From the NCBI GenBank assembly GCA_945861275.1, contig CAMATZ010000002.1, positions 10,300-74,299 of the forward strand: a stretch of DNA of 64,000 bases, given 5' to 3'. Source of the DNA: Bordetella parapertussis (lineage in GTDB: Bacteria > Pseudomonadota > Gammaproteobacteria > Burkholderiales > SG8-41). The notes under the pieces were generated by a model, which was not told where the DNA came from, did not search any database, and saw only the letters and a list, made by a program, of their open reading frames with translations. Made by a program: the position numbers and the translations under genes. Below, in pieces: positions 21,711-36,827 of the stretch (positions are counted from its first letter, which is position 1; every line of letters begins with the position of its first letter).

Positions 21711-21719
21711 GCGCCTGAG

Positions 21720-22652
21720 ATGCGTGCCATCGTCGTGGGCCTCGGCGTTCAGGGCAACAAGCGCCGCAAGTTCGCCGGTGCGGATTTCGTCTGCGCGGTT
21801 GATCCGGTCAATCCCGAAGCCCAATACAAAAAGATCGAGGACGTTCCGCTCGGAGACTACGATGCAGCCTTAGCGTGCATCCCCGACGAGCCGAAGATAG
21901 CGGTGCTTAGCTATCTTCTGCGCAACGGCAAACACGTGCTGGTGGAAAAACCGCTGTGGGCTGCGGATGACGCAGAAATTCAGCAACTCGAGAACCTGGC
22001 GCGTGCCGGCAATGCCGTTTGTTACACCGCTTACAACCATCGCTTCGAGCCGCATTACGCACGTATGCGTGAGCTGATTCAATCCGGAAAATTGGGCACT
22101 ATCTACCGTTGCCGCATGTTTTACGGTAATGGGACGGCACGCCTGGTGCGCGACTCGGCGTGGCGCGATCAGGGCGCCGGCGTGCTGCCCGACCTCGGTT
22201 CGCATCTACTCGACACCGCAAAATTCTGGTTTGGCGAGGTCGGCAACGATTTTCAGGTGATCGCAGCGCATTGCCATGAGAATCGTTCGCCCGACCACGT
22301 CGTCATTCTTTCCAAACGCACACAGCCGGTGATCGAACTGGAAATGTCGCTGCTGTCATGGCGCAACCACTTTACCTGCGATATTTTTGCCGAAAAAGGC
22401 ACCGCGCATATCCGCTCCCTGTGCAAATGGGGGCCGGCCACATTTACCCACCGCACGCGCGTGCTCCCCTCGGGACGGCCTGCCGAGGAAGTGGAAACGC
22501 TGGAACAAGAGGATCCGACGTGGGCGCTTGAGTATGCGCATTTCAAGTCACTCTGTGCGCAAGCCCAAGCCACCAGCCTGGCCAACGACCTGTGGCTGAA
22601 TAAACTATTGCGCGATTTGGGCGCGGTCGCCATCAAGGAGGCTGCAACGTGA
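21720..22652 (+). CDS. Gfo/Idh/MocA family oxidoreductase
   Basis: 310 aa. MRAIVVGLGVQG...HVLVEKPL N-terminal Rossmann motif and EKP motif. Confidence 0.78.
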   Translation: MRAIVVGLGVQGNKRRKFAGADFVCAVDPVNPEAQYKKIEDVPLGDYDAALACIPDEPKIAVLSYLLRNGKHVLVEKPLWAADDAEIQQLENLARAGNAVCYTAYNHRFEPHYARMRELIQSGKLGTIYRCRMFYGNGTARLVRDSAWRDQGAGVLPDLGSHLLDTAKFWFGEVGNDFQVIAAHCHENRSPDHVVILSKRTQPVIELEMSLLSWRNHFTCDIFAEKGTAHIRSLCKWGPATFTHRTRVLPSGRPAEEVETLEQEDPTWALEYAHFKSLCAQAQATSLANDLWLNKLLRDLGAVAIKEAAT

Positions 22653-23920
22653 GCAAGCCGGTGATAGGCTTTGCGGGCATGACGCATCTGGGCATCAACT
22701 CTGCCGCAGGCGCCTTGGGCCACGGCTTTGAGACCGTGTGTTTTGACGCCGATTGCGCGCTTATACAGCGCCTTAAAGCGGGCGAACTGCCGGTAAGCGA
22801 ACCGGGGTTGCCGGAGTTGCTCAATCAACACACCGGGAGAGCGCTTTATACCGACGCCATAGCAAACCTGTCACTCTGCGATGTGGTGTATATCGCCACC
22901 GACGTGCCTACCGATGATCAGGGCGAGAGTGATCTTTCCGGCATATCGTTACTGATCAAGCAGGTGGCGGCAGTACTGGCGCCTCACGCCGTATTGGTGG
23001 TGCTGTGTCAGGTGCCGCCGGGATTCACACGCGGCCTTGCGGTGCCTGTGCAACGCCTGTTCTATCAGGTTGAAACACTGGTGTTCGGCCGCGCCGTCGA
23101 GCGCGCCATGCAGCCGGAACGTTTTATTGTCGGTTGTGCCGATGCGGCAGCCGCGCTGCCCGTGGCGTACCTGGAATTTCTGCAGTCGTTCGCCTGCCCC
23201 TTGCTGCTGATGCGTTATGAAAGTGCGGAGCTGGCGAAGATCGCGATCAATTGTTGTTTGGTGGCATCGGTGACAGTGGCGAATACACTGGCCGGTGTGG
23301 CGGAACGCATCGGCGCCAACTGGCATGAGATAGTGCCGGCACTCAAGCTCGACCGCCGTATCGGCCCCCACGCGTACCTCGCGCCGGGGCTGGGCCTTGC
23401 CGGCGGCAATCTTGAACGTGACCTGGCTACGGTATTGCGCCTGGCGGGCGAAACCGGCAGCGAAGTCAGCCTGATTGAAGCGTTTGTGACGAACAGCCGC
23501 CATTGCCGGGACTGGGTGTTGCGCGCGCTGCATCGCGAAGTGTTCGGGGTGAATCCACATCCCGCGATCAGCGTGCTCGGACTCGCCTACAAAGAAAACA
23601 CCCGCTCCACGAAAAATTCGCCATCACTGGCGTTGCTTGAAAACCTGAAACCGTGGCCGCTACGCGTATACGATCCAGCGGTAGTCGTTTGCGCTGACTA
23701 TCATCCGCAACTCACCGGCTGCGCGTCGGCGCTGGACGCGGTGGCCGGCACCGATGTGCTGATTATCATGACGCCGTGGCCGGAATTTCGCGAGCTTAAG
23801 CCCGCCGCGTTGGCCGCCGCCATGAACGGACGACTGGTAATAGATCCCTACCGCATGCTGGATGGCGAGGCCCTGGTTAAGGCCGGGTTGCGTTACCTGA
23901 CGCTGGGCAGCTCACAATAA
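22649..23920 (+). CDS. UDP-glucose/GDP-mannose dehydrogenase family nucleotide-sugar dehydrogenase
   Basis: 423 aa. IGFAGMTHLG N-terminus, central helical domain, and C-terminal LGLAYKENTRSTKNSP typical of the UDPG_MGDP_dh family. GTGA overlap upstream. Confidence 0.78.
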   Translation: MSKPVIGFAGMTHLGINSAAGALGHGFETVCFDADCALIQRLKAGELPVSEPGLPELLNQHTGRALYTDAIANLSLCDVVYIATDVPTDDQGESDLSGISLLIKQVAAVLAPHAVLVVLCQVPPGFTRGLAVPVQRLFYQVETLVFGRAVERAMQPERFIVGCADAAAALPVAYLEFLQSFACPLLLMRYESAELAKIAINCCLVASVTVANTLAGVAERIGANWHEIVPALKLDRRIGPHAYLAPGLGLAGGNLERDLATVLRLAGETGSEVSLIEAFVTNSRHCRDWVLRALHREVFGVNPHPAISVLGLAYKENTRSTKNSPSLALLENLKPWPLRVYDPAVVVCADYHPQLTGCASALDAVAGTDVLIIMTPWPEFRELKPAALAAAMNGRLVIDPYRMLDGEALVKAGLRYLTLGSSQ

Positions 23921-23937
23921 AACCGTACAATCATCCA

Positions 23938-24807
23938 ATGCTGACTCACGAAAACCCAACCCCAATAAAACCCCGCCGGGTGGTCATCATCGGCGCCGGT
24001 GGCTTTGTCGGCGGCGCCATCCGCAAAGCGCTGTTGTCCCAAGCGATCGACGTGCTCGCGTTAACGCGCAAGGAACTCGATCTGCTGGCCGGCGGCGCAG
24101 CAGAAAAATTGGCGCACCTGCTGCGGCCTGACGACAGCGTGGTGATGGTATCGGCGATCGCGCCGGTAAAGACCGTGCCGATGCTGATGCAAAACCTCGC
24201 GATGGCGGAAGCCGTGTGTGCGGCACTGTCGCAGGCGCCGATTGCGCATCTGCTGTATATCAGTTCGGACGCGGTTTACAGCGACGACGCAAATCCGGTC
24301 ACCGAGTCCTCCGCCTGCGCGCCGTCCACCCTGCACGGCATGATGCACGCCGCGCGTGAGCTGATGTTAAAGAGCGCGGCCGCAGCGCCGCTCGCCTGCT
24401 TGCGTCCGACGCTGATCTACGGCGCGGCTGATCCGCATGGCGGCTATGGTCCCAATCGCTTTCGCCGGCAAGCGGATAAGGGTGAACCCATTTCAATATT
24501 CGGCGAAGGCGAAGAGCGTCGCGATCATATTGCGGGTGAGGATGTGGCCGCGCTCGCGACGTTGATGCTGACCCACAAGAGCCGTGGCGCGCTGAACGCC
24601 GTTACCGGGATTTCTACTTCCTTCAGCGACATCGCGCAAATCGTGGCGCAACTGCACGGCGGCACGGTAAAAAGCGTGCCTCGACCCGGCCCGCGGCCAC
24701 ACCTGCTGCACCGGTTTTTCGATATTACGAATTGTCATAAAGCGTTTCCTGAATTTCGCTTTACGCCGTTGGCGGCAGGCCTGGCTCGCGCCAGAGCCAG
24801 CCACTGA
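23938..24807 (+). CDS. NAD-dependent epimerase/dehydratase (SDR)
   Basis: 289 aa. VVIIGAGGFVGGAI Rossmann motif. Confidence 0.72.
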   Translation: MLTHENPTPIKPRRVVIIGAGGFVGGAIRKALLSQAIDVLALTRKELDLLAGGAAEKLAHLLRPDDSVVMVSAIAPVKTVPMLMQNLAMAEAVCAALSQAPIAHLLYISSDAVYSDDANPVTESSACAPSTLHGMMHAARELMLKSAAAAPLACLRPTLIYGAADPHGGYGPNRFRRQADKGEPISIFGEGEERRDHIAGEDVAALATLMLTHKSRGALNAVTGISTSFSDIAQIVAQLHGGTVKSVPRPGPRPHLLHRFFDITNCHKAFPEFRFTPLAAGLARARASH

Positions 24808-24818
24808 GGAGAGTTGCC

Positions 24819-25472
24819 GTGGCTGAGATCAATCTGCTGGCGCGTTTGCCTACCATCAAACGCAATATCGAAAAACGCAAGGAAGCACAGACCGCGGAAA
24901 ATATTGCCATTTCGCGGCAATACGGAGAGCAATATTTCGACGGGCCGCGCGAAGTGGGTTACGGCGGCTATCGCTACGATGGCCGGTGGATGCCGGTGGC
25001 CGAGGACTTCATCCGCCATTTCAATCTCAAGCCCGGCGACCGGGTGCTGGATGTGGGTTGCGCGAAGGGGTTTCTGGTCAAGGACCTGATGAAAGTATGC
25101 CCCGGACTGGAGGCGTTCGGGCTGGACATTTCCGAGTACGCGCTGATGCATTGCGAGCGCGAACTAGCCGGCCGGCTGCATCTGGGCAGCGCCGACAAAT
25201 TGCCGTTTCCAGACAACAGCTTCAATGCCGTAATTTCACTGAATACGATACACAACTTTGAACGGCATGATGCGGTGCGGGCGGTGCGCGAGATCGAGCG
25301 GCTCGCGCCGGGAAAAGGGTTTATCCAAGTCGACTCGTATCGCACGCCCGAGCAGCGCGCGCTTTTCATGAGTTGGGTTTTGACCGCTAAATTTCATGAC
25401 TATCCCGACGGCTGGATCAAGCTCTTTGGCGAAGCGGGCTATACGGGCGACTGGTTCTGGACTATACTTTAG
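24819..25472 (+). CDS. class I SAM-dependent methyltransferase (Methyltransf_11-like)
   Basis: 217 aa with a GTG start. VLDVGCAKGFLVKDL motif I and FNAVISLNTIHNF. Confidence 0.78.
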   Translation: MAEINLLARLPTIKRNIEKRKEAQTAENIAISRQYGEQYFDGPREVGYGGYRYDGRWMPVAEDFIRHFNLKPGDRVLDVGCAKGFLVKDLMKVCPGLEAFGLDISEYALMHCERELAGRLHLGSADKLPFPDNSFNAVISLNTIHNFERHDAVRAVREIERLAPGKGFIQVDSYRTPEQRALFMSWVLTAKFHDYPDGWIKLFGEAGYTGDWFWTIL

Positions 25473-25505
25473 CAGACGTAACTAATTGTTTTAAAAGGAA
25501 TATTA

Positions 25506-26495
25506 ATGAAGACCTACGCTGTCCTCGGCGCCGGCGGCTCGTTTGGCATCCACACCGCGCTGTATTTGCTGGACCACGCCGATCCCAAAAAGGTGATCGG
25601 CATAGGCCGCAATCCGCTGCGTCCGGAACCGTTTTCGCTGAATATCGAGAAGCGCAAAAATTTCAGCTACCACGCCTATCACATCACCTATGAGTTGGAC
25701 TCGGTGCTTGAAGTGCTGGATAAGGAAAAACCCCAAGTCATTATTAATTATGCCGCGCAAGGTGAAGGCGCGGTGTCGTGGAAAAAATCGTGGCGCTTCT
25801 TCGAGACCAATTCCATGGCGCTCGCCAAATTGAGCGAGGAACTGATGTCCCGGGATTATCTGGAGCGCTTCATTCAGATTGGTACGTCCGAACTCTATGG
25901 CTCAGTGGATTTTGCAGCTAAAGAAACCACACCGATACAGGCCACCAGCCCCTACGCCGCTTCGAAAGCGGCGTTTGACATGTACCTGATGTCGGCGCAC
26001 CGTTTTCTGAAGTTTCCGATGAATATCATACGTCCCTCCAATGCGTATTGCCCCGGTCAACTGTTGCATCGTGTGATTCCCAAAACCATAGTTTGTGGAT
26101 TGACCGGCCGCAAGCTGCCGTTGCAAGGCGGCGGGCGTGCCGAGAAATCCTACATTCATGCGCGTGATTTGGCGCGCGCCGTATTGCTGGTGTCGGAGAA
26201 AGCGCCCCTGGGTGCGATTTACAACGCCGGCCCCAAGGATCCGACATCGATACGCCGGGTGGTTGAACTGACGGCACAGGCACTGGGTATGCCGTTTGAA
26301 CAATTGTGTGAAATGACTGGAGATCGACTGGGTCAGGACTCGCGCTACTGGCTGGATTCCAGCGCCATCAAGAAAGACGTGGGTTGGGAGCCGCAAATCA
26401 GTTGGGAGGAAGGGCTTGCGGAAATGGTGGCGTGGGGCCGCAAGTACATCGATCAATTGCACGACTGGCCCACTGATTACGTGTTGCGGGCGTGA
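25506..26495 (+). CDS. NDP-sugar 4,6-dehydratase-like extended SDR
   Basis: 329 aa. AVLGAGGSFG, IQIGTSELYGS and SPYAASKAAFDMYL follow the SYK triad layout of RmlB-type dehydratases. Confidence 0.75.
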   Translation: MKTYAVLGAGGSFGIHTALYLLDHADPKKVIGIGRNPLRPEPFSLNIEKRKNFSYHAYHITYELDSVLEVLDKEKPQVIINYAAQGEGAVSWKKSWRFFETNSMALAKLSEELMSRDYLERFIQIGTSELYGSVDFAAKETTPIQATSPYAASKAAFDMYLMSAHRFLKFPMNIIRPSNAYCPGQLLHRVIPKTIVCGLTGRKLPLQGGGRAEKSYIHARDLARAVLLVSEKAPLGAIYNAGPKDPTSIRRVVELTAQALGMPFEQLCEMTGDRLGQDSRYWLDSSAIKKDVGWEPQISWEEGLAEMVAWGRKYIDQLHDWPTDYVLRA

Positions 26496-27355
26496 GCTTG
26501 AGCCCTTCATCGCACACTATGACGAATCCTGCTGCGGCACTGGATGTGGCGGCGGCACGGCGCCGCTGCCTGCAATACCGCCGCCGCATCCTTGATATCT
26601 CGCAGCAAGTCAGCGCGCTGCATGTGGCGCCGGCATTCTCCTGTCTGGAAATGGTGGATGTGGTGTATCACGGTTTGATGCGGCGTGATCCCGCGTCCGC
26701 TGCGGCTGCGTTCCTCGATGGTTTTGTCATGTCCAAGGGCCACGGCTGTCTTTCGCAGTACGTGATGCTCGAAGAACTGGGCATTTTAATGCGTGATGAT
26801 CTTGCCGCGTATTGCACCCCCGCCGGACGGCTGGGCGCGCATCCCGACTACGGCGTGCCCGGCATCGAGGCATCGACCGGTTCGCTGGGTCACGGCATGG
26901 GCATATCTACCGGCATGGCGTATGCGGAAAAAATCAAAGATACCGACCGGCAGATGTATGTGGTGTTGTCGGATGGAGAAATGCAGGAGGGATCGACCTG
27001 GGAGTCGATGATGATGGCGGCGAATCTGGGGCTGGACAACCTGATCGCGCTGCTGGATTTGAACGATTTTCAGGGTCTGGGGCGCACCTCCGAGACCCAT
27101 CCGCGCTTTTATCCGATACTCGACAAAGTGCAGGCCTTCGGCTGGGAAGCGGTGGAAGTCAATGGCCACGACGCAGCCGCCATACACCATGCGATAGTTT
27201 CGCGGCAGGGCGACAAGCCCTTTTTTCTGGTGGGCAAGACGGTAAAAGGCAAGGGCGTTTCCTACATGGAAAACGTTCCCATATGGCATTACCGCTCACC
27301 CAACAAGGACGAGTACCAAAAGGCCCTGGCGGAACTGGCCGAGGTGGGGTCGTGA
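26492..27355 (+). CDS. transketolase, N-terminal (ThDP pyrophosphate-binding) subunit
   Basis: 287 aa. SKGHGCLSQY, GSLGHGMGISTG and VVLSDGEMQEGSTWE are the ThDP GDG-type motif region of split transketolases. GTGA overlap upstream. Confidence 0.88.
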   Translation: MSLSPSSHTMTNPAAALDVAAARRRCLQYRRRILDISQQVSALHVAPAFSCLEMVDVVYHGLMRRDPASAAAAFLDGFVMSKGHGCLSQYVMLEELGILMRDDLAAYCTPAGRLGAHPDYGVPGIEASTGSLGHGMGISTGMAYAEKIKDTDRQMYVVLSDGEMQEGSTWESMMMAANLGLDNLIALLDLNDFQGLGRTSETHPRFYPILDKVQAFGWEAVEVNGHDAAAIHHAIVSRQGDKPFFLVGKTVKGKGVSYMENVPIWHYRSPNKDEYQKALAELAEVGS

Positions 27356-28269
27356 GAAACACCTTCGCCAATACTTTTTTCGAGGCGGCAAAACTCGACT
27401 CGCGCCTGTGCGTGATCGTCGCCGACATCTCGCCGGCGGGCGCGATGGACAAATTTCGCCAGACGTTTCCGCGGCGCTTCATCAACACCGGGGTGGCCGA
27501 GCAGGTGATGATCGGCATGTGTGCCGGCATGGCGCTGCGCGGGCTGAGACCTTTCGCCTACACCATCGCGACCTTCACGCTGTTCCGACCGTTTGAGTTT
27601 GTGCGTGATGATCTGTGCTACCACAACCTGCCGGTAACCATCGTCGGCATCGGCGGCGGCGTTACCTATTCCACGCTCGGCGGTACGCACCACGCACAGG
27701 AAGATGTGGCGATCGCAAGCGCGATTCCCAATATGGCGGTGATTGCGCCGTGCGATCCGGCGGAAACCACCGCCGCCACGCTGTGGTGTACCCGGCAGGA
27801 GCGCGGACCGGTATATCTGCGTCTGGGCAAGGCCGGGGAGCCTGATTTGACTTCCGGCGCCGCGGACCCCTTCGAGTTCGGGAAGATCCGTTATCTGCAA
27901 CGCGGACGCGACGTTTGCATCATCGGCTATGGATCAATACTGAAGCTGGGTAAGGATTTGGCGGCGGCCTTTGAGCGTCAGGGTAAATCCGTGTCGCTGA
28001 TCTCGGCGCATACCATCACGCCGTTTGACCAGGCGGGCGTAGCGGCGGCGTTACACGCGCACAAACAAGTCGTGGTGATTGAAGAAATGGTGCCTCACGG
28101 CGGGCTGGGTTCGCGGGTCAAGGAGGTGGCGTGGGACTCGCGCGCGAGCTGCCGGCTGGATGCGTTTTCGCTGAAAGCGGAATTCATCCACAACTACGGC
28201 AGCCACGGCGATTTGTTGGCGGCTCACGGGCTGGATCTGAAATCACTGTCCGCGGCACTGGGCTTGTAG
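27352..28269 (+). CDS. transketolase, C-terminal (pyrimidine-binding) subunit
   Basis: From GTG 27352 (GTGA overlap): VRNTFANTFFEAA...FINTGVAEQVMIGMCAGMALRG...HHAQEDVAI. The ORF-track start 26812 is a spurious upstream extension overlapping the N-terminal subunit in another frame. Confidence 0.88.
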   Translation: MRNTFANTFFEAAKLDSRLCVIVADISPAGAMDKFRQTFPRRFINTGVAEQVMIGMCAGMALRGLRPFAYTIATFTLFRPFEFVRDDLCYHNLPVTIVGIGGGVTYSTLGGTHHAQEDVAIASAIPNMAVIAPCDPAETTAATLWCTRQERGPVYLRLGKAGEPDLTSGAADPFEFGKIRYLQRGRDVCIIGYGSILKLGKDLAAAFERQGKSVSLISAHTITPFDQAGVAAALHAHKQVVVIEEMVPHGGLGSRVKEVAWDSRASCRLDAFSLKAEFIHNYGSHGDLLAAHGLDLKSLSAALGL

Positions 28270-28305
28270 TTGCGCCGCGGACCGGTTGCCGGGACCCACG
28301 GCTAA

Positions 28306-28773
28306 ATGGCTGAACCGGTTTTTCTCACGGCTGAGGACAAGTTGCGCGGTGACGACGCCGTCGCCGCCTTGCTGGTGCTTGACGATGGCCGCTATGTGAT
28401 GCAATTGCGTGACGCGATTCCGCGGATTTTCTACCCTGGACATTGGGGTTGTTTCGGCGGCGCTGTCGAGGAGGGAGAAGAACCTGAACTCGCGCTGCGG
28501 CGGGAACTCGCCGAGGAAATAGAATTTGCAGCGGGCACAATGACAGAATTCACGCGCTTTGATTTTGACTTGCGCGGTCTGGGCCAAAAGAAAGTGTACC
28601 GGATTTTTTACGAAGTGCCGATCACGCAGGCAGCACTCGCAAAACTGGTGTTACACGAAGGCGCTGCATACCAGGTATTCAGCGGCGCGCAACTTTTGCA
28701 GGAAAGACACGTAACGCCGTACGATGCCTTCGCCATTTTGTTGCATTACCGGCGCGAGCGCTTTCAGCCTTGA
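28306..28773 (+). CDS. NUDIX hydrolase
   Basis: 155 aa. Complete Nudix box GGAVEEGEEPELALRRELAEEIEF. Last gene of the plus-strand glycan operon. Confidence 0.82.
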   Translation: MAEPVFLTAEDKLRGDDAVAALLVLDDGRYVMQLRDAIPRIFYPGHWGCFGGAVEEGEEPELALRRELAEEIEFAAGTMTEFTRFDFDLRGLGQKKVYRIFYEVPITQAALAKLVLHEGAAYQVFSGAQLLQERHVTPYDAFAILLHYRRERFQP

Positions 28774-28794: not shown

Positions 28795-29493
28795 CTACCC
28801 AAGGTGCTTGCGAAAGAACGCCACCGTCAGCGCCAGCGCCCGATCCGCATCCGCCTTGCGATAAGGCTTGCCCCCATGCCGTGCGAACGCATGATCGGCT
28901 TCGGGATATTTGTGGAGAGTCACCAGCGGATTGGGTGACAGCCGCCGCTCCAGCAATTCATTCACTTCGGCTTGCACCCAGCGATCCTTCATCGCCATGT
29001 GCAGCATGAACGGCCGATGCAGATTGCCCGCTTCGCGAATATTGTGTTCGATGTAAGTGCCGTAATAGGCCACAGCACAATCGATATCGGTACGGCAACA
29101 CAGCAGATAACACAGCTTGCCACCGAGACAATAACCGACCGCGCCCGCTTTGCCGTTGCACGCAGGCAGGCCCGCGAGATATTTCAGGGTGTCTTCCATG
29201 TCACGCACACCGAGGTCGTAGTCGAAATCGTAATAGAGATCGAACGCCTTTTTCCCGTCCTCGGGATTGCGGTCGGACAATTCCACCCCCGCCTCCTGCC
29301 GCCAGAACAGATCGGGCACCAGGCACACGAAGCCGGCTTCGGCAAACTCCTGTGCATGTTTGCGCATGGTGTCGTTGACGCCCCAGATTTCCATGATGGC
29401 GACGATGCCGCCCACCGGCGCACCATCCGGCACTGCAAGGTAGGCGCCCATCACGCCGTCGCGCAGAGGCACTTTGATGTTGGATGTTTTCAT
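28795..29493 (-). CDS. dienelactone hydrolase family protein
   Basis: 232 aa. GAVGYCLGGKL (nucleophile Cys elbow) and EADHAF (catalytic His region). Lies 10 nt downstream of cofC on the same strand. Confidence 0.82.
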   Translation of the reverse strand: MKTSNIKVPLRDGVMGAYLAVPDGAPVGGIVAIMEIWGVNDTMRKHAQEFAEAGFVCLVPDLFWRQEAGVELSDRNPEDGKKAFDLYYDFDYDLGVRDMEDTLKYLAGLPACNGKAGAVGYCLGGKLCYLLCCRTDIDCAVAYYGTYIEHNIREAGNLHRPFMLHMAMKDRWVQAEVNELLERRLSPNPLVTLHKYPEADHAFARHGGKPYRKADADRALALTVAFFRKHLG

Positions 29494-29503: not shown

Positions 29504-30205
29504 TTATTTGGTGCGCGATGTTATTGCGCCCGTGCTGCGCGACGCAGTGCGGGGCAATGTGGCCAGAAACGCTTGCGGTGCGTCACCGCTGTTCCGCCAT
29601 TCCGCGAGATCTTCCGGCGTGTCCAGATCAAACGCCAGCGCCGCGTTGATACACGGAAAAGTACGCACACCACGCGCTTCGCCCTGCGCGATGTGCCGTG
29701 CGTAACTATCCTTGCCAAACGCGAACTTGCGCACGCTGGCATCCACCAGCAAGGCATTGGTGCCTGCGTGATGACGGTCGGGCGCGATCACTACGCCCTT
29801 ACCGAAAACCGGCAGCATCTCCATCGCCTCCAACGCCTCAGCCTCCAGCCGCGGTAAATCACACGGCAGAATCAGCAGGCGCTGCGCGCCCAGCGCAGCG
29901 GCATGAGCGGCAGCCTGCGACAATGCAGCATTCAGCCCACCGGTGGATGCGTGCTTACTTGTGTGTTCCGGCAGCGCAATCGCTCCGGCTTTACGCGCCA
30001 GCGCGAGCGTGACTTCGCATGGGCTCACCACCACACAGCGCTGCGCGTCGCCCAGCCACCCGCTCACCACGCGCAAGGTGCGTGCGAGCAACCAACGATT
30101 GAGCTTGGCGCGCGCGGCCGGTTCCAGAACGGCGGACAATCTGGACTTGCCTTCATTCACGCCGCGATGCGGCACAATAATAAGTAAGTGTTTGTATTTA
30201 AACAT
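29504..30205 (-). CDS. cofC: F420 biosynthesis guanylyltransferase (2-phospho-L-lactate / PEP / 3-PG guanylyltransferase, CofC/FbiD)
   Basis: 233 aa. IIVPHRGVNEGKSRL, LILPCDLP, DRHHAGTNALL and FGKDSYARH are CofC family motifs. 8-nt overlap with cofD. Confidence 0.85.
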   Translation of the reverse strand: MFKYKHLLIIVPHRGVNEGKSRLSAVLEPAARAKLNRWLLARTLRVVSGWLGDAQRCVVVSPCEVTLALARKAGAIALPEHTSKHASTGGLNAALSQAAAHAAALGAQRLLILPCDLPRLEAEALEAMEMLPVFGKGVVIAPDRHHAGTNALLVDASVRKFAFGKDSYARHIAQGEARGVRTFPCINAALAFDLDTPEDLAEWRNSGDAPQAFLATLPRTASRSTGAITSRTK

Positions 30206-31145
30206 TATTTATAGATCGGCCCAGCGCCAGACTGAGCACGCGGCGCGCGAGTATTGTGCTCTTGCGGCAATTGCTCATCAACGTATCGGTAACCAACACG
30301 CGCTTGCCCAGGCGTTCAATCGCGCCGGCTAACTTCACGTCTTGCTGGTCGATCACCCAGCGATCTACTGCGCTGCCATAGTGCCGCGCGACTTCCAGCG
30401 CAGTCGGCTGCATCCCCAGCTCCCGCATCATTTTCGCCGCCGGGCCTTTGACCGCCGCGCCGCCGATGATCGGTGACACCGCCACCACGGGAAACGTGCG
30501 CGCCTTCAACCACGCCTTGATGGCAGGCACGCTGAAGATCGGCGCAATGCTCACGAACGGGTTTGAGGGGCACAGCACCACGGCATCCACACGCCCTCGC
30601 AGCACACGCGCGAGCGCGTCGGGCACACGCGCATTGCGCGCGCCTGTGTAACGAAATCCGCTTACGCGCGGCTTGCACTGCTGCCGCACAAAGTAATTCT
30701 GGAAATCCATTTCGCCCGATGTTGTTTTCACACGGGTGCGCACCGCCGTCTCGCTCATCGGCAAAATCTTGTGCTGGATGCCCAGGCGCGCGGCAAGATC
30801 GCTGGTCACTGCCGAGAGTGATGCGCCCCCACGCAATGCTTCACGCCGCAGCACATGCAGCGCGAGATCGCGATCACCCAATTGAAACCAGTGTGCGCCG
30901 CCCAGACGCTTTACTTCGCTGATGAACTGCCATGTTTCGCCTGCGCGGCCCCAGCCGGTTTGCGGATTGTTGACGCCTGCCAGCGTGTACAGCACGGTGT
31001 CGAGGTCGGGACAAACGGTAAAACCCAGATGCTCGAAATCGTCGCCGGTATTCACCACAATGGCCAGTTCCTTCGGCGACAACACCGCCGCCAGCCCGAC
31101 CGCGAGCTTCGCGCCACCGACACCGCCTGCGAGCGCCACGATCAT
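30198..31145 (-). CDS. cofD: 2-phospho-L-lactate transferase (FO phosphotransferase)
   Basis: 315 aa. MIVALAGGVGGAKLAVGL...VVNTGDDFEHLGFTVCPDLDTVLYTLAG is the CofD/FbiA signature. Confidence 0.9.
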   Translation of the reverse strand: MIVALAGGVGGAKLAVGLAAVLSPKELAIVVNTGDDFEHLGFTVCPDLDTVLYTLAGVNNPQTGWGRAGETWQFISEVKRLGGAHWFQLGDRDLALHVLRREALRGGASLSAVTSDLAARLGIQHKILPMSETAVRTRVKTTSGEMDFQNYFVRQQCKPRVSGFRYTGARNARVPDALARVLRGRVDAVVLCPSNPFVSIAPIFSVPAIKAWLKARTFPVVAVSPIIGGAAVKGPAAKMMRELGMQPTALEVARHYGSAVDRWVIDQQDVKLAGAIERLGKRVLVTDTLMSNCRKSTILARRVLSLALGRSINNV

Positions 31146-31906
31146 CGAAATAAATCCTCGGCTTCGGGGCGCAGCAGTTCTTTGACGGAACTCTCACGCG
31201 GCGCGTACGGAAACCCGCGCACCAGCACGGCGGGCGTGCCCTCATCCGCCTGACCCATAACCAGCGAAGCGGCAGCAGCGAGTTCATCCGCAGCGGCCAC
31301 CTGCGTCACCTTCAGGGTGCGGCCTTCGCGGTCCTTATTCCCGCGCAAATCAATCAGCGCCGGTATGCCGGCAACGCCAATCGCGGTGCCGGTCACGCCG
31401 TTGCGCCAGGCGCGTCCGAAGCTGTCGATGATGAGCACGCCCACGTCGACTCCACTGTGGCCGCGCAATGCGTCGCGCAGCTTATGCGCGCTGCCATCGG
31501 GGTCCACCGGCAATAACAACACCGCGTCTTCAGCGCCCGGCACATTGGATTGATCGATACCCGCGTTCGCCATCACGAAGCCCAGCTTGTGTTCGACGAT
31601 AATGATGCCGGGCTTCACGCGCAGCACTTGGTGTGATTCACGCAGCATCAGTTCGACGATGCGCGGGTCTTTGTGGGCTGCCTTGGCCAGAGTCTGCGCC
31701 CGTGCAGAGGGCTGCACGCCCGCAAGTTGTACCAAACGGCCTTCGGCTTTGGAGACGATTTTTTGCGCGATTACGAGTATGTCGCCGGATTGCAGGGCCC
31801 TATGCGCACGCGCAATGGCGGTTGCAAGCAAATCGCATAGTGACGCACCTACAACCACTTCTGGTATGCCGGGCAACGCCACCAGACTCAATGCACGTTC
31901 AGTCAC
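31142..31906 (-). CDS. cofE: coenzyme F420-0:L-glutamate ligase (stand-alone CofE, no FbiB nitroreductase-like C-terminal domain)
   Basis: 254 aa. ILVIAQKIVSKAEGRLV, GFVMANAGIDQSN and DSFGRAWRNG. The length corresponds to the ligase domain only. Confidence 0.88.
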   Translation of the reverse strand: MTERALSLVALPGIPEVVVGASLCDLLATAIARAHRALQSGDILVIAQKIVSKAEGRLVQLAGVQPSARAQTLAKAAHKDPRIVELMLRESHQVLRVKPGIIIVEHKLGFVMANAGIDQSNVPGAEDAVLLLPVDPDGSAHKLRDALRGHSGVDVGVLIIDSFGRAWRNGVTGTAIGVAGIPALIDLRGNKDREGRTLKVTQVAAADELAAAASLVMGQADEGTPAVLVRGFPYAPRESSVKELLRPEAEDLFR

Positions 31907-32555
31907 GCATCACACCAGTAATCCGTATCCCCGACCCCGCAACCTTGTAGCGCTTATTGATCGCGATCAGCACCGAAGTCAGCGCCTCGGACGCCACCGA
32001 ATTCGCCAACACGCCCGCGTGCCACGCGCGCAGGCCCGCGTCATGCGCGAGGCCGATCACCACCTCACGCGCTTCGGCATCATCGCCGCACACCAGCACA
32101 TCGCAATCGACCTCGTGCGCCGCATCCTTGAGGTGGGTGGCGGAAACATTCTGGAATGCGGAGACCACTTTCACCTGCGCGCCCAGCCGCCGCTGCAACG
32201 CAAGCACCGCCGATTCGCCGTTGGGCAACTGCACTTTATCCACTCGCGGTGGTGTGAGCGGTACCGTGACATCAATCAGAATTTTGCCTGCCAGCTGACC
32301 GGCAACACTTTCGGCAGTGGCAAGTTGTGCCGCGAAGGGGACGGTGAGCACCACTATCGCTGCCTGCGCCGCTTCCGCATTACTGGCGCCACGCACCCTC
32401 GCTTTGCCGCCGAGCAATTGATTCAATTCCGCCGCGCTGGTTTGCGCTTTGCCCGCATCGCGCGAGCCTATCACCACCGCGTGCCCTGCAAGCGCCCAGC
32501 GATAGGCGAGCCCGCTGCCTTCCTTGCCGCTACCGCCGAGCACGCCGATGTTCAC
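31899..32555 (-). CDS. npdG: NADPH-dependent F420 reductase
   Basis: 218 aa with a GTG start (GTGA overlap with the fbiC stop). IGVLGGSGKEGSGLAYRWALAGHAVVIGSRD is the NpdG/Fno-type dinucleotide fold. Confidence 0.82.
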   Translation of the reverse strand: MNIGVLGGSGKEGSGLAYRWALAGHAVVIGSRDAGKAQTSAAELNQLLGGKARVRGASNAEAAQAAIVVLTVPFAAQLATAESVAGQLAGKILIDVTVPLTPPRVDKVQLPNGESAVLALQRRLGAQVKVVSAFQNVSATHLKDAAHEVDCDVLVCGDDAEAREVVIGLAHDAGLRAWHAGVLANSVASEALTSVLIAINKRYKVAGSGIRITGVMRD

Positions 32556-34870
32556 GCGGCGCTGCGCTCTTTTTGCGCTGGCATGGGCAACGCCACCAGC
32601 GGTGGCGCCGCCTGCGCTGCAGCATGCCGCTCCAGCGTCGCGTCGCCATACAGCGTGGTGCGCTGCTGCGGCACGCGCCCTGCCGCACTGATCATCGCCT
32701 CCATGCGCGCCGGCGGCATTTCCTGCCCGTGCTGCGTGCCCGCGGCGCGCGAAATGCTTTCGTTCATCAGCGTGCCGCCAAGATCATTGACGCCGGCGGC
32801 GAGGCATGCGGCCACACCGTCTGCGCCCAATTTCACCCACGATACTTGTATGTTCTGTATCACCGGATGCAGCACCAGCCGTGCCACCGCGTGCATCAAT
32901 ATCGCTTCGCGCGACGTCGGTCCCTTGCGCGCGCGGCCCTGCTGATACACCGGCGCGCCCATATGCACAAAAGGCAGCGGGATGAATTCGGTGAAGCCGC
33001 CGGTCTTCTGCTGCAAGGCGCGCACTCTCAGCAGATGCCGCGCCCAGTGGCGCGGATGATCCACGTGGCCGAACATGATGGTAGCGGTGGAACGCAAGCC
33101 CAGCCCGTGCGCGGTTTCCATCACGGTGAGCCATTCTTCGGTGTTCACTTTATCCGGGCAGATCATGCGCCGCACTTCATCATCGAGAATTTCCGCGGCG
33201 GTACCGGGCAGGCTGTTCAGGCCCGCGTCGATCAACCGCAACAGAAATTCACGCACCGGCAAACCCAGTGTTTGCGCACCGTGGGTGACTTCCAGCGGCG
33301 TAAACGCATGCACGTGAATGCCGGGCGCCGCGCGTTTGACCGCGCGCAAAATGTCGAGATAGGTGTCGCCGGTGTACGAGGGATGAATGCCGCCCTGCAT
33401 GCACACTTCGGTGGCGCCGCGCGACCACGCTTCGGCCACACGCCGCTCGATTTCTTCGAGCGGCAGATCATAGGCCGCGCCACGCAGCGACGCACTGTGG
33501 CGGCCCTTGGAAAACGCGCAGAAGGTGCAACGATAAGTGCAGATGTTGGTGTAGTTGATATTGCGGTTCACCACATAGCGCACGGTGTCGCCTACGGTAT
33601 TGCGTCGCAGTGCGTCTGCCGCGGCGCAGATGTCGTGAAACGCGTCGCCGCGTGCGGTGAATAGCCGCGCGATGCCTGGTTCGGTTGATGTATCGTAAGT
33701 ATTTGTTTTTATTGATAATTTTTTGGATCGTGATAACACGTTCAACGGCAGCGCCAACCCCGGCGACCAGCCATCGGCGCGCGCATAACCATCAGTGTCA
33801 CTCGCACGGATTATGGCGGTGGCGATTTTCGGATGATGCCAGGCGTGCGCCTCGTGCACGTACGAGGGGTAGCTCGGCAGCCGCGCAACCAGTTCCTTGC
33901 CTTGCGCGGCAGTAATGCGGCGCAGTTCTTCAATGGCGGGCCACGGCGCTTCGGGATTCACATGATCAGGCGTCACCGGCGACACACCGCCCCAATCGTT
34001 GATGCCGGCGGCTATCAATTCCCCGCTATTCCCGGCACTCAGATTCGGTGGCGCCTGCAGGTTCATCTGCGCGCCCAGAATCATTCGCGCCACGGCGATG
34101 GTCCACAGCAATTCTTCGTGCGGCGCGTGCGGTGCAGTTGCCATGCGCGTAGCGGGCTTGGCGCGAAAATTCTGGATGATCACTTCCTGAATGTGGCCGT
34201 AGCGCTGGTGCAGATCGCGGATCGCAACCAGCGCGTCGATACGCTCCGCGCGTGTTTCACCGATGCCGATGAGTATGCCGGTGGTGAACGGTATCTTAAG
34301 CTCCCCCGCGAGCCGCAGTGTTTCAAGCCGCGCTGCCGGATGCTTGTCAGGCGAGCCAAAATGCGGTCCGCCTTTTTCGCACAGGCGCTCGGAGGTGCTT
34401 TCCAGCATCAAACCCTGCGACGCACTCACCTCGCGTAACCTCGCCATCTCATCGCGCGTCATCACTCCCGGATTCACGTGCGGCAACAGCGTAGTCTCGC
34501 GCAACACCAGCGCACACATCGCATGCAGGTAATCGATGGTGCTGGCGTAGCCCAGCGTCGCGAGTTCTTCGCGCGCGGCCTTGTAGCGCAACTCCGGTTT
34601 GTCGCCGAGTGTAAACAAGGCCTCGGTGCAATCTGCCGCCTGCCCTGCTTTGGCAATAGCCAGTACTTCATCGGGCGTGAGATAACCACGCACGCCCAGC
34701 TGTGGCGCGTGCGCAAAGGTGCAGTAGCTGCACACATCGCGGCACAGCCGCGTCAACGGAATGAATACCTTGCGCGAGTATGAGATGAGCGGGCCGTGGC
34801 CTGCGTCGCGCAGGCGCGCGGCTTCAGGCATCAGGCCGACTACGGGACTTGCTGTCAGGTGCTCAAACAT
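32552..34870 (-). CDS. fbiC: FO synthase, fused CofG/CofH (7,8-didemethyl-8-hydroxy-5-deazariboflavin synthase)
   Basis: 772 aa with two radical-SAM CxxxCxxC sites (CRDVCSYCTF and CTYRCTFCAF), one in each half. Confidence 0.93.
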   Translation of the reverse strand: MFEHLTASPVVGLMPEAARLRDAGHGPLISYSRKVFIPLTRLCRDVCSYCTFAHAPQLGVRGYLTPDEVLAIAKAGQAADCTEALFTLGDKPELRYKAAREELATLGYASTIDYLHAMCALVLRETTLLPHVNPGVMTRDEMARLREVSASQGLMLESTSERLCEKGGPHFGSPDKHPAARLETLRLAGELKIPFTTGILIGIGETRAERIDALVAIRDLHQRYGHIQEVIIQNFRAKPATRMATAPHAPHEELLWTIAVARMILGAQMNLQAPPNLSAGNSGELIAAGINDWGGVSPVTPDHVNPEAPWPAIEELRRITAAQGKELVARLPSYPSYVHEAHAWHHPKIATAIIRASDTDGYARADGWSPGLALPLNVLSRSKKLSIKTNTYDTSTEPGIARLFTARGDAFHDICAAADALRRNTVGDTVRYVVNRNINYTNICTYRCTFCAFSKGRHSASLRGAAYDLPLEEIERRVAEAWSRGATEVCMQGGIHPSYTGDTYLDILRAVKRAAPGIHVHAFTPLEVTHGAQTLGLPVREFLLRLIDAGLNSLPGTAAEILDDEVRRMICPDKVNTEEWLTVMETAHGLGLRSTATIMFGHVDHPRHWARHLLRVRALQQKTGGFTEFIPLPFVHMGAPVYQQGRARKGPTSREAILMHAVARLVLHPVIQNIQVSWVKLGADGVAACLAAGVNDLGGTLMNESISRAAGTQHGQEMPPARMEAMISAAGRVPQQRTTLYGDATLERHAAAQAAPPLVALPMPAQKERSAA

Positions 34871-34908: not shown

Positions 34909-35877
34909 TTAGTTAATCCGCACACCCGTCACTTTCACCACTTCTGCCCAGGTCTTCACATCCTGCTCCATCACGCGCTGCATTACGTCCGGGCTTTGCT
35001 TCATCGCTTCAGCCGCATTGGCCAGGAAAATCTCTTTGGCCTTCGGTGCATCCACCGCTTTGGCGAATTCGGCGTTCAGCTTCTCGATGATAGCGCGCGG
35101 CACGTTGGCCGGGGCCAGCACGGCCGCGATCACGGCCGCATCCACGCCCTTGACAGTTTCGCCCAGCGCGGGGATTTCCGGCAAGGCTGCGGCGCGTTTG
35201 TCCGAGGTGAGACCGACCGCTACCAGCTTTTTCGAGCGCACGTGTTCCAGCGCCGCCGGTATGGTGGTGACGATCAATGCAATCTCGCCGGTGAGCAACG
35301 ACACGGTGGATGTTGTACCGCCCTTGTAGTTGACGGCAATCAGGTCGATACCGGCCCGCGTGCGGAATTTCTCCGCTGCCAGATGCGTGACAGTGCCCGC
35401 GCCGGCATTGCCGCAGGTGATGCCGGGGCTTTTTTTCGCCAGCGCGATCAGCTCTTTTGCGTTTTTCACACCCACCGAGGGATGCGCCACCATGATCAGC
35501 GGTGACGCCGACACCGGCGCTACGGCAACCAGATCGCGCGCATGGTTAAAGCCGAGCTTGTGGTAAAGCGAGGGCATGATGGCGTGTGTGGAGAGGTCGG
35601 TAAACAGCAGGGTATAACCATCCGCTGCAGATTTGGCAACAAAGTCCGCAGCGAGCGTGGTACCGGCGCCAGCGCGATTTTCAACGATGACCTGGTGACC
35701 GAGGCTGCGCGTCATTTCCGCTGCGGTTACGCGCGCGAAGGTGTCGGTGGCGCCGCCGGGTGCGAAGGCTACGATCAGGCGCACGGGTTTGGTGGGAAAG
35801 GTTTGAGCCGTTGCCTGCCCCAAGGCAGCAATCAGCGCAGCACTCATAGCGGTAGTTAAGTAATTGTTTTTAATCAT
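34909..35877 (-). CDS. Bug family tripartite tricarboxylate transporter substrate-binding protein (TctC-like)
   Basis: From ATG 35877: signal peptide MIKNNYLTTAMSAALIAALGQATAQ, then TFPTKPVRLIVAFAPGGATD. ATGA overlap with the LLM gene stop. Confidence 0.85.
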   Translation of the reverse strand: MIKNNYLTTAMSAALIAALGQATAQTFPTKPVRLIVAFAPGGATDTFARVTAAEMTRSLGHQVIVENRAGAGTTLAADFVAKSAADGYTLLFTDLSTHAIMPSLYHKLGFNHARDLVAVAPVSASPLIMVAHPSVGVKNAKELIALAKKSPGITCGNAGAGTVTHLAAEKFRTRAGIDLIAVNYKGGTTSTVSLLTGEIALIVTTIPAALEHVRSKKLVAVGLTSDKRAAALPEIPALGETVKGVDAAVIAAVLAPANVPRAIIEKLNAEFAKAVDAPKAKEIFLANAAEAMKQSPDVMQRVMEQDVKTWAEVVKVTGVRIN

Positions 35878-36827
35878 TTTTTCTTCAAGGCGGGTAACAC
35901 ATCCACAATGAACTGCGCCAGCTGCGCCACCTGATCCTCGCCCACCAGCCGTATGCACAGGTCGGTAACACCTGCTGCCTCGTAGCGCTTAAGCACATCA
36001 ATCACCACCGACGCGGGTCCCAAGCCCATCATGCCACGGAAATTCACGCCGCCGCCGTAGTATTTTTCGAGGAACTCGTGCGTCAGCGACTCGGCCTTGG
36101 CCGCATCGTCTTCAAGCCGGATGGTAGTGTAAACGCACAGGGGAAAATCAGGGCGCGGGCGCGCGTGCTTCGCCATCGCCTCCGCGCACACCTCGCGCAG
36201 TTTACGGATATCGTCTTCAGTCACGTACGTGGTAATCACGCCGTCACCGAATTTGCCCACACGCTCGATCTGCGCCGGAATGAATTCGCCGCGATTGCCT
36301 GCGGTGACCAGCAGCGGCGGGCCTTCTTCGTTCCACGGCAGCGGGCCGATGGTGTGTTCGGTGAGCTTGAAGCCGCTGCCTGCATACGTCACCGGCCTGC
36401 CGCTCCACAGCATGCGCCACACTTTCATGTGTTCTTCGAGGTCTTTGGCGCGGCGCTTGTGTACTTGCCCGCACGCCTCCCACTCGCGCGCAATCGCGGG
36501 CAGACCCCAACCCACGCCGAGACCCAGCACCAGCCGCCCCTGCGAAATCTGATCGATGTTGGCGAGCTGATGCGCCAGTACCGTGGGCTGGCGCAATGCC
36601 GGCAACAAAACCGCAGTTCCCAATCTGGCGCGCCGGGTCATCGCCGCTACATACGCGAGCGTGGTCAGCGGTTCCAGACGCGGCTTGGCCACTACGCTGT
36701 CACCCACCCACACGTCCATGTCCGCCTCATCGCACAAGCGCGCGATGGTCCAGCAGTCTTCCACCGGCGGACGCCGCGCCGACTGAATAATCACACCCCG
36801 GTGGGGCAGCAACACGCCCAAACGCAT
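35874..36827 (-). CDS. LLM-class (luciferase-like) oxidoreductase, probably F420-dependent
   Basis: 317 aa. LGVLLP...GDSVVAKPRLEPLTTLAYVAAMTRRARLGTAVLL...GRLVLGLGVGW resembles the F420-dependent LLM subfamily. Adjacent to the F420 operon. Confidence 0.78.
   Translation of the reverse strand: MRLGVLLPHRGVIIQSARRPPVEDCWTIARLCDEADMDVWVGDSVVAKPRLEPLTTLAYVAAMTRRARLGTAVLLPALRQPTVLAHQLANIDQISQGRLVLGLGVGWGLPAIAREWEACGQVHKRRAKDLEEHMKVWRMLWSGRPVTYAGSGFKLTEHTIGPLPWNEEGPPLLVTAGNRGEFIPAQIERVGKFGDGVITTYVTEDDIRKLREVCAEAMAKHARPRPDFPLCVYTTIRLEDDAAKAESLTHEFLEKYYGGGVNFRGMMGLGPASVVIDVLKRYEAAGVTDLCIRLVGEDQVAQLAQFIVDVLPALKKK

Follow-up and report, generated by a model that had tools for sequence, protein, structure and literature searches.

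An F420 operon of an uncultured freshwater betaproteobacterium, without a reductase gene nearby, encodes a CofC of the predicted 2-phospho-L-lactate/phosphoenolpyruvate class

The locus analyzed here is a proteobacterial-type operon with genes for both making and using F420, carried by an uncultured freshwater betaproteobacterium. The ordinary pocket of its CofC, of the predicted 2-phospho-L-lactate (2-PL)/phosphoenolpyruvate (PEP) class, suggests that the side chain is probably of the lactyl type found in canonical F420, and not glyceryl. Because this pocket is standard and not of the 3-phosphoglycerate (3-PG) type, the missing dehydro-F420-0 reductase is no sign of a new cofactor, and the locus reveals none; the absence belongs to a known open question. 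F420 matters for biocatalysis and drug activation, and the C3 precursor used by Gram-negative bacteria is still debated.

Gene calls and profile matches in the window (the whole 64-kb stretch of DNA that was analyzed) reveal a tightly packed string of minus-strand genes in the order LLM–TctC–fbiC–fno–cofE–cofD–cofC–DLH, listed here with its flanking features.

35874..36827, minus strand: F420-dependent-type oxidoreductase of the luciferase-like (LLM) kind, encoded at the head of the string (PF00296, E 3e-41)
34909..35958, minus strand: TctC/Bug-family periplasmic solute-binding protein (PF03401, E 3e-58)
32552..34870, minus strand: fbiC (fused CofG/CofH), FO synthase (NF006687 bifunctional CofGH, 1140 bits; TIGR03550 and TIGR03551 also match)
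31899..32555, minus strand: fno/npdG, NADPH-dependent F420 reductase (TIGR01915, 195 bits; cut-off 149.8)
31142..31906, minus strand: cofE, F420-0:gamma-glutamyl ligase, 254 aa (TIGR01916, 292 bits, residues 7-254; PF01996, residues 14-231)
30198..31145, minus strand: cofD, transferase joining the activated C3 acid to FO (TIGR01819, 290 bits)
29504..30205, minus strand: cofC, guanylyltransferase selecting the side-chain precursor, 233 aa (TIGR03552, 132 bits)
28795..29493, minus strand: DLH, ClcD-like dienelactone hydrolase (PF01738, E 2e-43)
39604-40827, minus strand: family III CoA-transferase (PF02515, E 9e-130)
40870-41655, minus strand: enoyl-CoA hydratase (PF00378, E 7e-45)
65..28773, plus strand: sugar-nucleotide/polysaccharide biosynthesis cluster and a NUDIX gene (Pfam content)

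Consecutive genes overlap at fbiC/fno (4 nt), fno/cofE (8 nt), cofE/cofD (4 nt, ATGA), and cofD/cofC (8 nt), and the DLH start lies 10 nt beyond the cofC stop, as the earlier note had said. All four biosynthetic activities (FO synthase, guanylyltransferase, transferase, and gamma-glutamyl ligase) are encoded, each above the curated cut-off (NF006687, TIGR03552, TIGR01819, and TIGR01916, respectively). On these assignments, FbiC would form the deazaflavin FO, CofC would activate a C3 acid with GTP, CofD would transfer the activated acid to FO, and the monofunctional CofE would add the glutamate tail; Fno would place hydride from NADPH onto the cofactor, which the LLM oxidoreductase of the same operon would consume. 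The LLM protein, a probable user of F420, finds its best NCBIfam match in TIGR03619 (F420_Rv2161c) at 149 bits, under the cut-off of 166.9; it is 73 to 95% identical across about 18 related loci, in which its gene always lies upstream of TctC-fbiC. Related loci likewise keep the TctC gene in its place between LLM and fbiC. A second possible start, “MIK”, follows 27 codons into its translation, and translation probably begins at this ATG (35877), immediately after the LLM stop. Promoter and terminator scans of the locus gave nothing above chance, and the same was true of an Rfam scan.

CofE is full length, its ligase domain ends the protein at residue 254, and no further domain is detected by Pfam or NCBIfam. 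The C-terminal nitroreductase domain of FbiB-type fusions (PF00881 after PF01996, as in the positive examples P0250, P0264, and P0387) is absent and, because the cofE stop overlaps the cofD start, there is no space for a relic of it. Pfam scans gave zero PF00881 matches among the 61 open reading frames of the window and no PF00881 gene in the parent contig over the roughly 9 kb that precede it on the left. An FbiB-C/FbiE profile built from six sequences, which recovered all positive controls at E ≤ 1e-91, matched nothing at E ≤ 1 in the six-frame translation of the whole window. The Pfam scans, together with a six-frame search that used two such profiles with positive controls, led us to reject a hidden reductase inside the window; the total sequence covered is about 73 kb of the genome. 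These results bear out the earlier description of a 254-residue, ligase-only CofE with no FbiB-type nitroreductase in or near the operon. This architecture is the majority state and is not unusual: among the 150 cluster representatives nearest to this CofE, 124 measure at most 300 aa and only 5 have a nitroreductase domain, and CofE ends at the ligase domain in all 80 related loci. The question raised from the stand-alone CofE, namely, which side chain is made, is shared by the literature, where the route in ligase-only, reductase-less bacteria is still debated (PMC8498797; PMC8764529; 10.1101/670455).

The choice as framed in the earlier note, between a non-canonical side chain and an unidentified reductase, leaves out the known stand-alone FbiE, which is found in Burkholderiales both in and outside F420 operons. 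FbiE-like stand-alone proteins number at least 5395. The betaproteobacterial metagenome-assembled genome CP070643 has the order fbiC-LLM-fno-cofE-NTR-cofD-cofC, with a translationally coupled stand-alone nitroreductase (NTR); in Variovorax, an FbiE-like gene lies 6 kb from npdG-cofG-cofH-cofD, and Paraburkholderia sp. PGU19 carries one without any F420 gene within 10 kb. The cluster of the cultured Paraburkholderia sprentiae (cofE-cofD-cofC, fbiC, and npdG) is without a reductase. Fused FbiB is present in some metagenomic relatives, and T. roseum shows the order cofD-cofC-DMT-NTR. Given linked or unlinked reductases among the sister betaproteobacterial operons, a reductase elsewhere in the present genome is possible. 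Local absence tells little about a genome, since no reductase was found within 10 kb of cofC in any of the Chloroflexi and Rubrobacter loci, which for this reason could not serve as nearby positive controls; Thermomicrobium, a Chloroflexi-type bacterium, depends on a stand-alone reductase (PMC8498797). Every member of the window clade lacks the reductase, with cofE overlapping cofD, and this pattern fits equally well with relocation and with a true loss accompanied by a switch of substrate. No direction of gain or loss could be concluded from a neighbor-joining tree of CofE and CofD, in which deep nodes reach only 43% bootstrap.

Aligned to 7P97, 6BWG, and 2I5E, the window CofC has the pocket residues L91, L95, A147, G164, and S167 and the Mg-binding residues D116, D193, and D195. 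Mutagenesis of the Mycetohabitans CofC defined M91, C95, H145, and S162 as diagnostic of 3-PG use (PMC8764529); residue by residue, their equivalents in the window CofC are L, L, A, and G. Thus, the Ser/Thr by which 3PG-F420 producers are recognized at the S162 position is Gly164 here, within an FGKDS motif (FSGPS in 7P97), and the supporting M91, C95, and H145 are L91, L95, and A147. Gly occupies the S162-equivalent position in all 204 non-reference homologues, and both G164 and L91 are invariant in the alignment of the clade (A1). The comparison with characterized utilizers that had been proposed as a check therefore places this CofC in the 2-PL/PEP class and not with the 3-PG enzymes, as far as the sequence tells, and pocket residues cannot tell 2-PL users from PEP users.

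The earlier note had entertained 3PG-F420, pointing to a Burkholderiales endosymbiont; as in Mycetohabitans, CofC would then activate 3-phospho-D-glycerate to give a glyceryl linker. The background is indeed that of Mycetohabitans (a betaproteobacterium whose CofE is ligase-only and whose operon has no reductase nearby), and the best PDB sequence match of the window CofC is the Mycetohabitans enzyme, 7P97 (E 9e-17). However, a special link to Mycetohabitans is not supported: the two enzymes are only 31.5% identical, the window CofC ranks 142 among the matches of the Mycetohabitans enzyme in the homologue set, and 7P97 is as distant from this clade as from the Chloroflexi or Actinobacteria enzymes. 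In Mycetohabitans, C95L strongly cut 3-PG activation, and every tested S162 substitution except Thr moved the preference to 2-PL; moreover, archaeal CofCs with Ser/Thr, when paired with the CofD of the same organism, failed to make a 3PG product (PMC8764529). An L/L/A/G pocket with an invariant Gly thus makes 3PG-F420 unlikely, and we reject this reading, which we hold to be very improbable, on the diagnostic residues and the lack of specific relatedness to 7P97. The diagnostic Ser/Thr has been described as “correlated with” 3-PG tolerance (PMC8764529), and the lack of this residue argues strongly, though not absolutely, against 3-PG use. CofD also filters intermediates (PMC8764529); no diagnostic residues are known for CofD. 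Within the lactyl outcome, the most likely route, which we favor tentatively, would lead from PEP to dehydro-F420-0, to be reduced by an FbiE-type nitroreductase; both the substrate and the presence of the reductase elsewhere in the genome are what we infer. Where 2-PL is not available, PEP is taken: in yeast, MjCofC/D gave dehydro-F420-0 and no other product (PMC10949242). Next in likelihood, as a possible but less favored branch, the cognate CofC and CofD would take 2-PL directly, as proposed for methanogens, with 2-PL arising from some kinase or a side reaction of central metabolism, and a reductase would then not be needed. The pocket residues are compatible with this, every operon of the clade is without a reductase whereas sister operons retain a coupled one, and other Gram-negative CofCs, those of Paracoccus and Oligotropha, favored 2-PL in vitro (PMC8764529). 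Yet this preference was measured with a foreign CofD, that of M. jannaschii, in a biased set-up that its authors consider prone to artefacts (PMC8764529). Furthermore, a 2-PL-forming enzyme is known in no organism (PMC8498797), the annotated genes of the window include no candidate for one, and the product in yeast cells was PEP derived alone (PMC10949242). Our literature search found no newly described 2-PL kinase or proteobacterial reductase.

It is also conceivable that dehydro-F420 is the final cofactor, in which case PEP would be used without a reductase and CofE would glutamylate dehydro-F420-0 to DF420-n, used as such by LLM and Fno. The pocket is compatible with PEP, neither the window nor the other loci of the clade showed a reductase, and the glutamyl ligase may precede reduction, DF420-1 having been seen in yeast (PMC10949242). 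We nevertheless judge this outcome to be distinctly improbable: the phosphoenol bond of DF420 reportedly lowers its stability (PMC8498797; PMC8764529), its use as a mature cofactor is known from no organism, and the sequence covered is no more than some 73 kb of the genome. There is even less to recommend the idea that dehydro-F420-0 is reduced, in place of FbiE, by another enzyme of the block that is not a nitroreductase, with LLM the most plausible candidate, and we give it hardly any weight. This LLM type (at least 73% identity), encoded by the first gene of the string, is confined to the reductase-less clade, and the LLM of a reductase-bearing operon (L095) is just 31% identical to it. However, LLM genes also lie beside the reductase-bearing operons L087, L088, L095, and L097, so that LLM and reductase are not clearly complementary, and in relatives LLM adjoins the CoA-transferase and hydratase genes, which indicates a catabolic substrate. 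We know of no LLM enzyme that reduces an enolpyruvyl group. Overall, we consider it unlikely that this widespread clade truly lost the DF420-0 reductase without a Mycetohabitans-type change in CofC and adopted an undescribed solution, be it a bacterial source of 2-PL, dehydro-F420 as the working cofactor, or reduction by an enzyme other than a nitroreductase, for example LLM.

The DLH protein aligns with the ClcD structure 1DIN (E 1e-40) over the Cys (GYCLGG), Asp, and His residues; PF01738 covers its full length, and C122 is the equivalent of C123 of 1DIN, so that the DLH fold and its Cys-His-Asp triad are both present. Previously regarded as an unexplained extra, DLH proves to be a regular member of the block, being 81 to 95% identical in related loci and marking the 3' edge of the segment conserved in about 17 to 20 loci of uncultured Betaproteobacteria. 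Its orthologues (82 to 86% identity) also occur without F420 biosynthesis genes nearby, in TctC/Amidohydro_2/CoA-transferase/hydratase or Rieske-dioxygenase contexts, and we therefore reject an F420-specific or biosynthetic role. DLH is most likely an enzyme of the cofactor-using pathway, and we read it as a putative lactone or ester hydrolase of a catabolic pathway; a single feature, the 10-nt gap, suggests its co-transcription with the F420 operon. The CoA-transferase and hydratase genes lie directly upstream of LLM in four related loci (L009, L022, L024, and L025), and the same families accompany the DLH orthologues in L098-L100. The window offers no chlorocatechol ortho-cleavage context, since families of catechol dioxygenase, cycloisomerase, and maleylacetate reductase were all missing from it. 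DLH, TctC, CoA-transferase, hydratase, and Amidohydro_2 form a conserved catabolic set in which the F420 operon is embedded, and this arrangement suggests that abundant freshwater bacteria run a specific catabolic pathway that depends on F420.

The Amidohydro_2 partner of DLH sits just left of the window, where the parent contig reads Amidohydro_2-EVE-ZapA-TonB. This Amidohydro_2 is 73 to 86% identical to the gene directly after DLH in L023, L026, and L031, and L085 has the order DLH-EVE-ZapA-TonB. The Amidohydro_2 inside the window (38101-39213) was rejected as the partner, being only 26 to 36% identical to the DLH-adjacent ones. DLH and the Amidohydro_2 gene that usually adjoins it were probably separated by insertion of the polysaccharide cluster with its NUDIX gene, which lies outside the F420 module.

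Betaproteobacterial operons of near-identical layout, one containing the reductase (cofE-NTR-cofD in CP070643) and the other lacking it (the window clade), constitute a natural experiment. It bears on whether reductase-less proteobacterial operons make F420 from 2-PL, halt at dehydro-F420, or draw on a reductase from elsewhere.

Among known systems, the closest are the proteobacterial clusters, which likewise combine a fused fbiC, npdG/fno, a monofunctional cofE, cofD, and cofC with an adjoining LLM gene and no nitroreductase (PMC8498797). Examples are Paracoccus denitrificans and Oligotropha carboxidovorans from the literature and, examined in this analysis, Paraburkholderia sprentiae (pl2WSM5005) and Novosphingobium resinovorum (pSA2). 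The window differs from these clusters in having all genes in a single co-directional string, flanked by CoA-transferase/hydratase genes on one side and DLH/Amidohydro_2 genes on the other; identity to the P. sprentiae proteins is about 50% for CofE and CofD and 33% for CofC, and the window represents another, uncultured freshwater lineage of Betaproteobacteria. Mycetohabitans (Paraburkholderia) rhizoxinica, also a betaproteobacterium, shares the enzyme families, the ligase-only CofE, and the absence of a DF420 reductase (in the window, a local absence), whereas its CofC has M/C/H/S at the specificity positions that read L/L/A/G in the window enzyme. In addition, the window encodes Fno and LLM, while the M. 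rhizoxinica genome is reported to be without all well-characterized F420-dependent enzyme families (10.1101/670455). The pocket of Mtb FbiD resembles that of the window CofC (L92, G163, S166, and three Asp residues), and the chemistry of the mycobacterial FbiD/FbiA/FbiB pathway is shared up to (D)F420-0; in contrast to the mycobacterial and Thermomicrobium pathways, the window has, locally, neither the FbiB C-terminal domain nor an FbiE gene. Finally, Pseudomonas ClcD (1DIN) matches the window DLH in length, fold family, GYCLGG Cys motif, His, and Asp, but in the window chlorocatechol/maleylacetate pathway genes are not nearby, and the recurring partners of DLH are TctC, Amidohydro_2, family III CoA-transferase, and hydratase.

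From 28.8 to 36.8 kb, eight genes run in one direction on the minus strand:

35874-36827, minus strand, F420-type luciferase-like oxidoreductase (LLM)
34909-35958, minus strand, TctC/Bug solute-binding protein, start probably at 35877
32552-34870, minus strand, fbiC (fused CofG/CofH)
31899-32555, minus strand, fno/npdG
31142-31906, minus strand, cofE (254 aa, TIGR01916 over residues 7 to 254)
30198-31145, minus strand, cofD
29504-30205, minus strand, cofC
28795-29493, minus strand, dienelactone hydrolase (DLH)

All five F420 genes pass the curated NCBIfam cutoffs. Four junctions of the string are overlaps of 4 or 8 nt, and DLH follows cofC at the 10-nt spacing reported in the earlier note. Judged by family membership, FbiC would make FO, CofC and CofD would attach a C3 acid of the 2-phospho-L-lactate (2-PL)/phosphoenolpyruvate (PEP) class, CofE would add glutamates, and Fno would reduce with NADPH the cofactor that the LLM enzyme would use. 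Because TIGR01916 spans residues 7 to 254 and the cofE stop codon overlaps the cofD start, a fused reductase domain is absent and there is no room for a relic of one; CofE is thus the ligase domain alone, as had been claimed.

The accompanying claim, that no FbiB-type nitroreductase is encoded in or near the operon, was borne out as well. Pfam scans of 61 window open reading frames (ORFs) gave no match to PF00881; at an E value of ≤0.001, they assigned no family to the sizeable ORFs at 12145-13302, 13324-14844, 52203-52640, 62466-63251, and 63316-63945. A reductase profile drew on P0250, P0264, and P0387, which belong to the nearest CofE relatives and are true FbiB fusions (PF00881 after PF01996 in all three), and on stand-alone FbiB-C homologs retrieved from Thermomicrobium, Variovorax, and Paraburkholderia. 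It found every control at an E value of ≤1e-91 and nothing at an E value of ≤1, either in the six-frame translation of the window (the sole search covering the 1,048-aa ORF at 59400-62546) or in the loci of the clade to which the window belongs; the roughly 9 kb of parent contig lying left of the window were reductase negative too. Local absence is, however, weak evidence on the whole genome, since more than 40 Chloroflexi and Rubrobacter loci likewise have no reductase gene within 10 kb of cofD-cofC-cofE, and the stand-alone copy of Paraburkholderia sp. PGU19 (54% identity) has no F420 gene within 10 kb.

A ligase-only CofE is not unusual. Of the CofE proteins representing the 150 nearest clusters at 50% identity, 124 have at most 300 aa and 5 carry a nitroreductase domain, and in the 80 related loci every CofE gene is ligase only. 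The same sample holds eight CofC-CofE fusions of about 450 to 480 aa with CofC N terminal (P0260, P0275, P0276, P0316, P0326, P0330, P0343, and P0388) and at least two Fno-CofE fusions (P0248 and P0291); we know of no characterization of either architecture. The cultured species Paraburkholderia sprentiae and Novosphingobium resinovorum carry plasmid-borne F420 clusters that, like the window operon, lack a reductase. The side-chain question is real but not special to this locus, as the structure of F420 and the route to it are not established for most Gram-negative bacteria (10.1101/670455; PMC8498797).

Unlike the gene observations of the earlier note, which stood in every detail, its interpretation is supported in part, and the most novel branch, 3PG-F420 made from 3-phosphoglycerate (3-PG), runs counter to the specificity residues. 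In Mycetohabitans CofC (structure 7P97), mutagenesis and crystallography showed that 3-PG activation depends on S162, with contributions from M91 and C95, and H145 was required to transplant the activity; Ser/Thr at the S162 position was proposed as diagnostic (Hasan et al., PMC8764529). Whereas Mycetohabitans CofC has M91/C95/H145/S162, the window CofC, aligned residue by residue to 7P97, 6BWG (Mycobacterium tuberculosis FbiD), and 2I5E, has L91, L95, A147, and G164. The carboxylate-binding Ser (S167) and three Mg-binding Asp residues are kept, and the local motif is FGKDS (FGPDS in M. tuberculosis FbiD, FSGPS in Mycetohabitans). Gly occupies the S162-equivalent position in 20/20 clade members and all 204 retrieved homologs. 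Although 7P97 is the top PDB match, its identity is only 31.5%, and its own best matches are Actinobacteria and Chloroflexi. Because of these residues and the lack of special kinship, 3PG-F420 is very improbable.

The pocket residues do not discriminate between 2-PL and PEP users, and CofD is a second filter, for which no sequence markers are known (PMC8764529). We tentatively favor PEP, with a reductase encoded elsewhere in the genome, at somewhat below even chances, because no organism is known to have an enzyme that forms 2-PL (PMC8498797), archaeal CofC and CofD in yeast gave dehydro-F420-0 as the sole product (PMC10949242), and FbiE-like genes (stand-alone reductases) unlinked to F420 genes occur in Burkholderiales. 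Direct use of 2-PL by CofC and CofD ranks next and is doubtful; it draws on the clade-wide lack of a reductase gene that sister operons hold translationally coupled and on the 2-PL preference of other Gram-negative CofCs in an in vitro assay that is itself biased (PMC8764529). Dehydro-F420 as the end product is unlikely, and reduction by a non-nitroreductase enzyme such as the LLM is as improbable as 3-PG use.

The DLH is ClcD-like, matching Pseudomonas ClcD (1DIN) at an E value of 1e-40 and sharing its Cys-His-Asp triad. No other protein of the block evolves as slowly: its identity to the DLH genes of L001 to L031 is 81 to 95%, versus 45 to 88% for CofC and 52 to 93% for CofD, and it is still 82 to 86% in Alphaproteobacteria, a pattern that would point to unusually strong constraint or recent horizontal spread. 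The family is very large, with more than 7,400 homologs, of which the best 120 are all at least 81% identical. Several gene neighborhoods that have no F420 biosynthesis gene within 8 to 10 kb also hold orthologs of 82 to 86% identity, which led us to reject a role in cofactor biosynthesis. They adjoin Amidohydro_2 and Rieske dioxygenase genes (in Alphaproteobacteria, still at 82 to 86%), adjoin Amidohydro_2 and TctC genes, or lie in TctC–FAA-hydrolase–Amidohydro_2–DLH–MaoC–CoA-transferase strings. Since the same partner families flank the window operon (CoA-transferase, 39604-40827; hydratase, 40870-41655; TctC genes), we read DLH as part of a predicted carboxylate or lactone catabolic set embedding the F420 operon and LLM.

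Many TctC/Bug genes are typical of Burkholderiales, and the 64 kb hold at least seven (34909-35958, 36925-37926, 43731-44813, 51225-52196, 52714-53691, 54823-55908, and 58293-59276), which fits a lifestyle centered on carboxylate uptake. A 1,028-aa fusion of FAD-linked oxidase (PF01565/PF02913), 4Fe-4S dicluster, and CCG domains (46879-49965, minus strand) resembles a fused GlcD/GlcF-type 2-hydroxyacid dehydrogenase and may be relevant to the metabolism of lactate or glycolate; no tie to 2-phospholactate was found. On N. resinovorum plasmid pSA2 (L091, 4889-13244), a CaiB/BaiF CoA-transferase gene precedes fbiC-npdG-cofC and a TIGR03619 F420-dependent LLM gene comes after it, with cofD and cofE not adjacent; the pairing of CoA-transferase and F420-type LLM recurs across proteobacterial classes.

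In most clade loci, the block ends at DLH or at an Amidohydro_2 gene just past it. In the window and the parent contig to its left (window 65-28773 plus L102 1-8842), a NUDIX gene and a polysaccharide/sugar-nucleotide gene cluster spanning some 31 kb, which encodes epimerases, C- and O-methyltransferases, glycosyltransferases, a flippase, an MBOAT, and a split transketolase, lie between DLH and an Amidohydro_2–EVE–ZapA–TonB-receptor stretch. Because DLH directly adjoins the orthologous Amidohydro_2 gene in three relatives (L023, L026, and L031) and EVE-ZapA-TonB in another (L085), the cluster looks like an insertion in the window lineage and in L001 and L002.

The closest genomes are metagenome-assembled genomes (MAGs) of uncultured freshwater or soil Betaproteobacteria/Burkholderiales, and about 20 related MAGs keep the block [enoyl-CoA hydratase–family III CoA-transferase]–LLM–TctC–fbiC–fno–cofE–cofD–cofC–(TctC)–DLH–(Amidohydro_2). 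Several freshwater MAGs with the cluster are titled "Bordetella parapertussis" (L001, L002, L006, L007, L009, and L024), and two loci titled Streptomycetaceae/Streptomyces (L026 and L027) carry betaproteobacterial-type TctC genes, L026 also a DLH at 81% identity; these titles are probably taxonomic mislabels or belong to misbinned contigs.

Other metagenomic relatives encode a fused FbiB in the order Fno-FbiB-CofD. The complete betaproteobacterial MAG CP070643 (L095, 9141-12266) has a near-identical operon layout, fbiC-LLM-fno-cofE-NTR-cofD-cofC, where NTR is a 220-aa FbiE-like nitroreductase gene between cofE and cofD that overlaps cofD, and an unassigned contig (L097, 8129-12405) has fno-cofE-PNPOx-NTR-cofD-cofC-LLM, with a PNPOx-like gene beside NTR between cofE and cofD. 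In a neighbor-joining tree of CofE plus CofD, the window clade has 100% bootstrap support and the reductase-bearing operons form a separate clade (94%); the order of deep branches is poorly supported (43%), and the tree favors neither loss nor gain of the reductase. The window locus belongs to an already known class of Gram-negative F420 clusters. The L095 and L097 operons are natural "split FbiB" versions of it, with a stand-alone NTR that the window lacks. The main value of the locus is that betaproteobacterial operons with the reductase (L095) and without it (the window clade) form a natural pair, which makes the precursor question directly testable.
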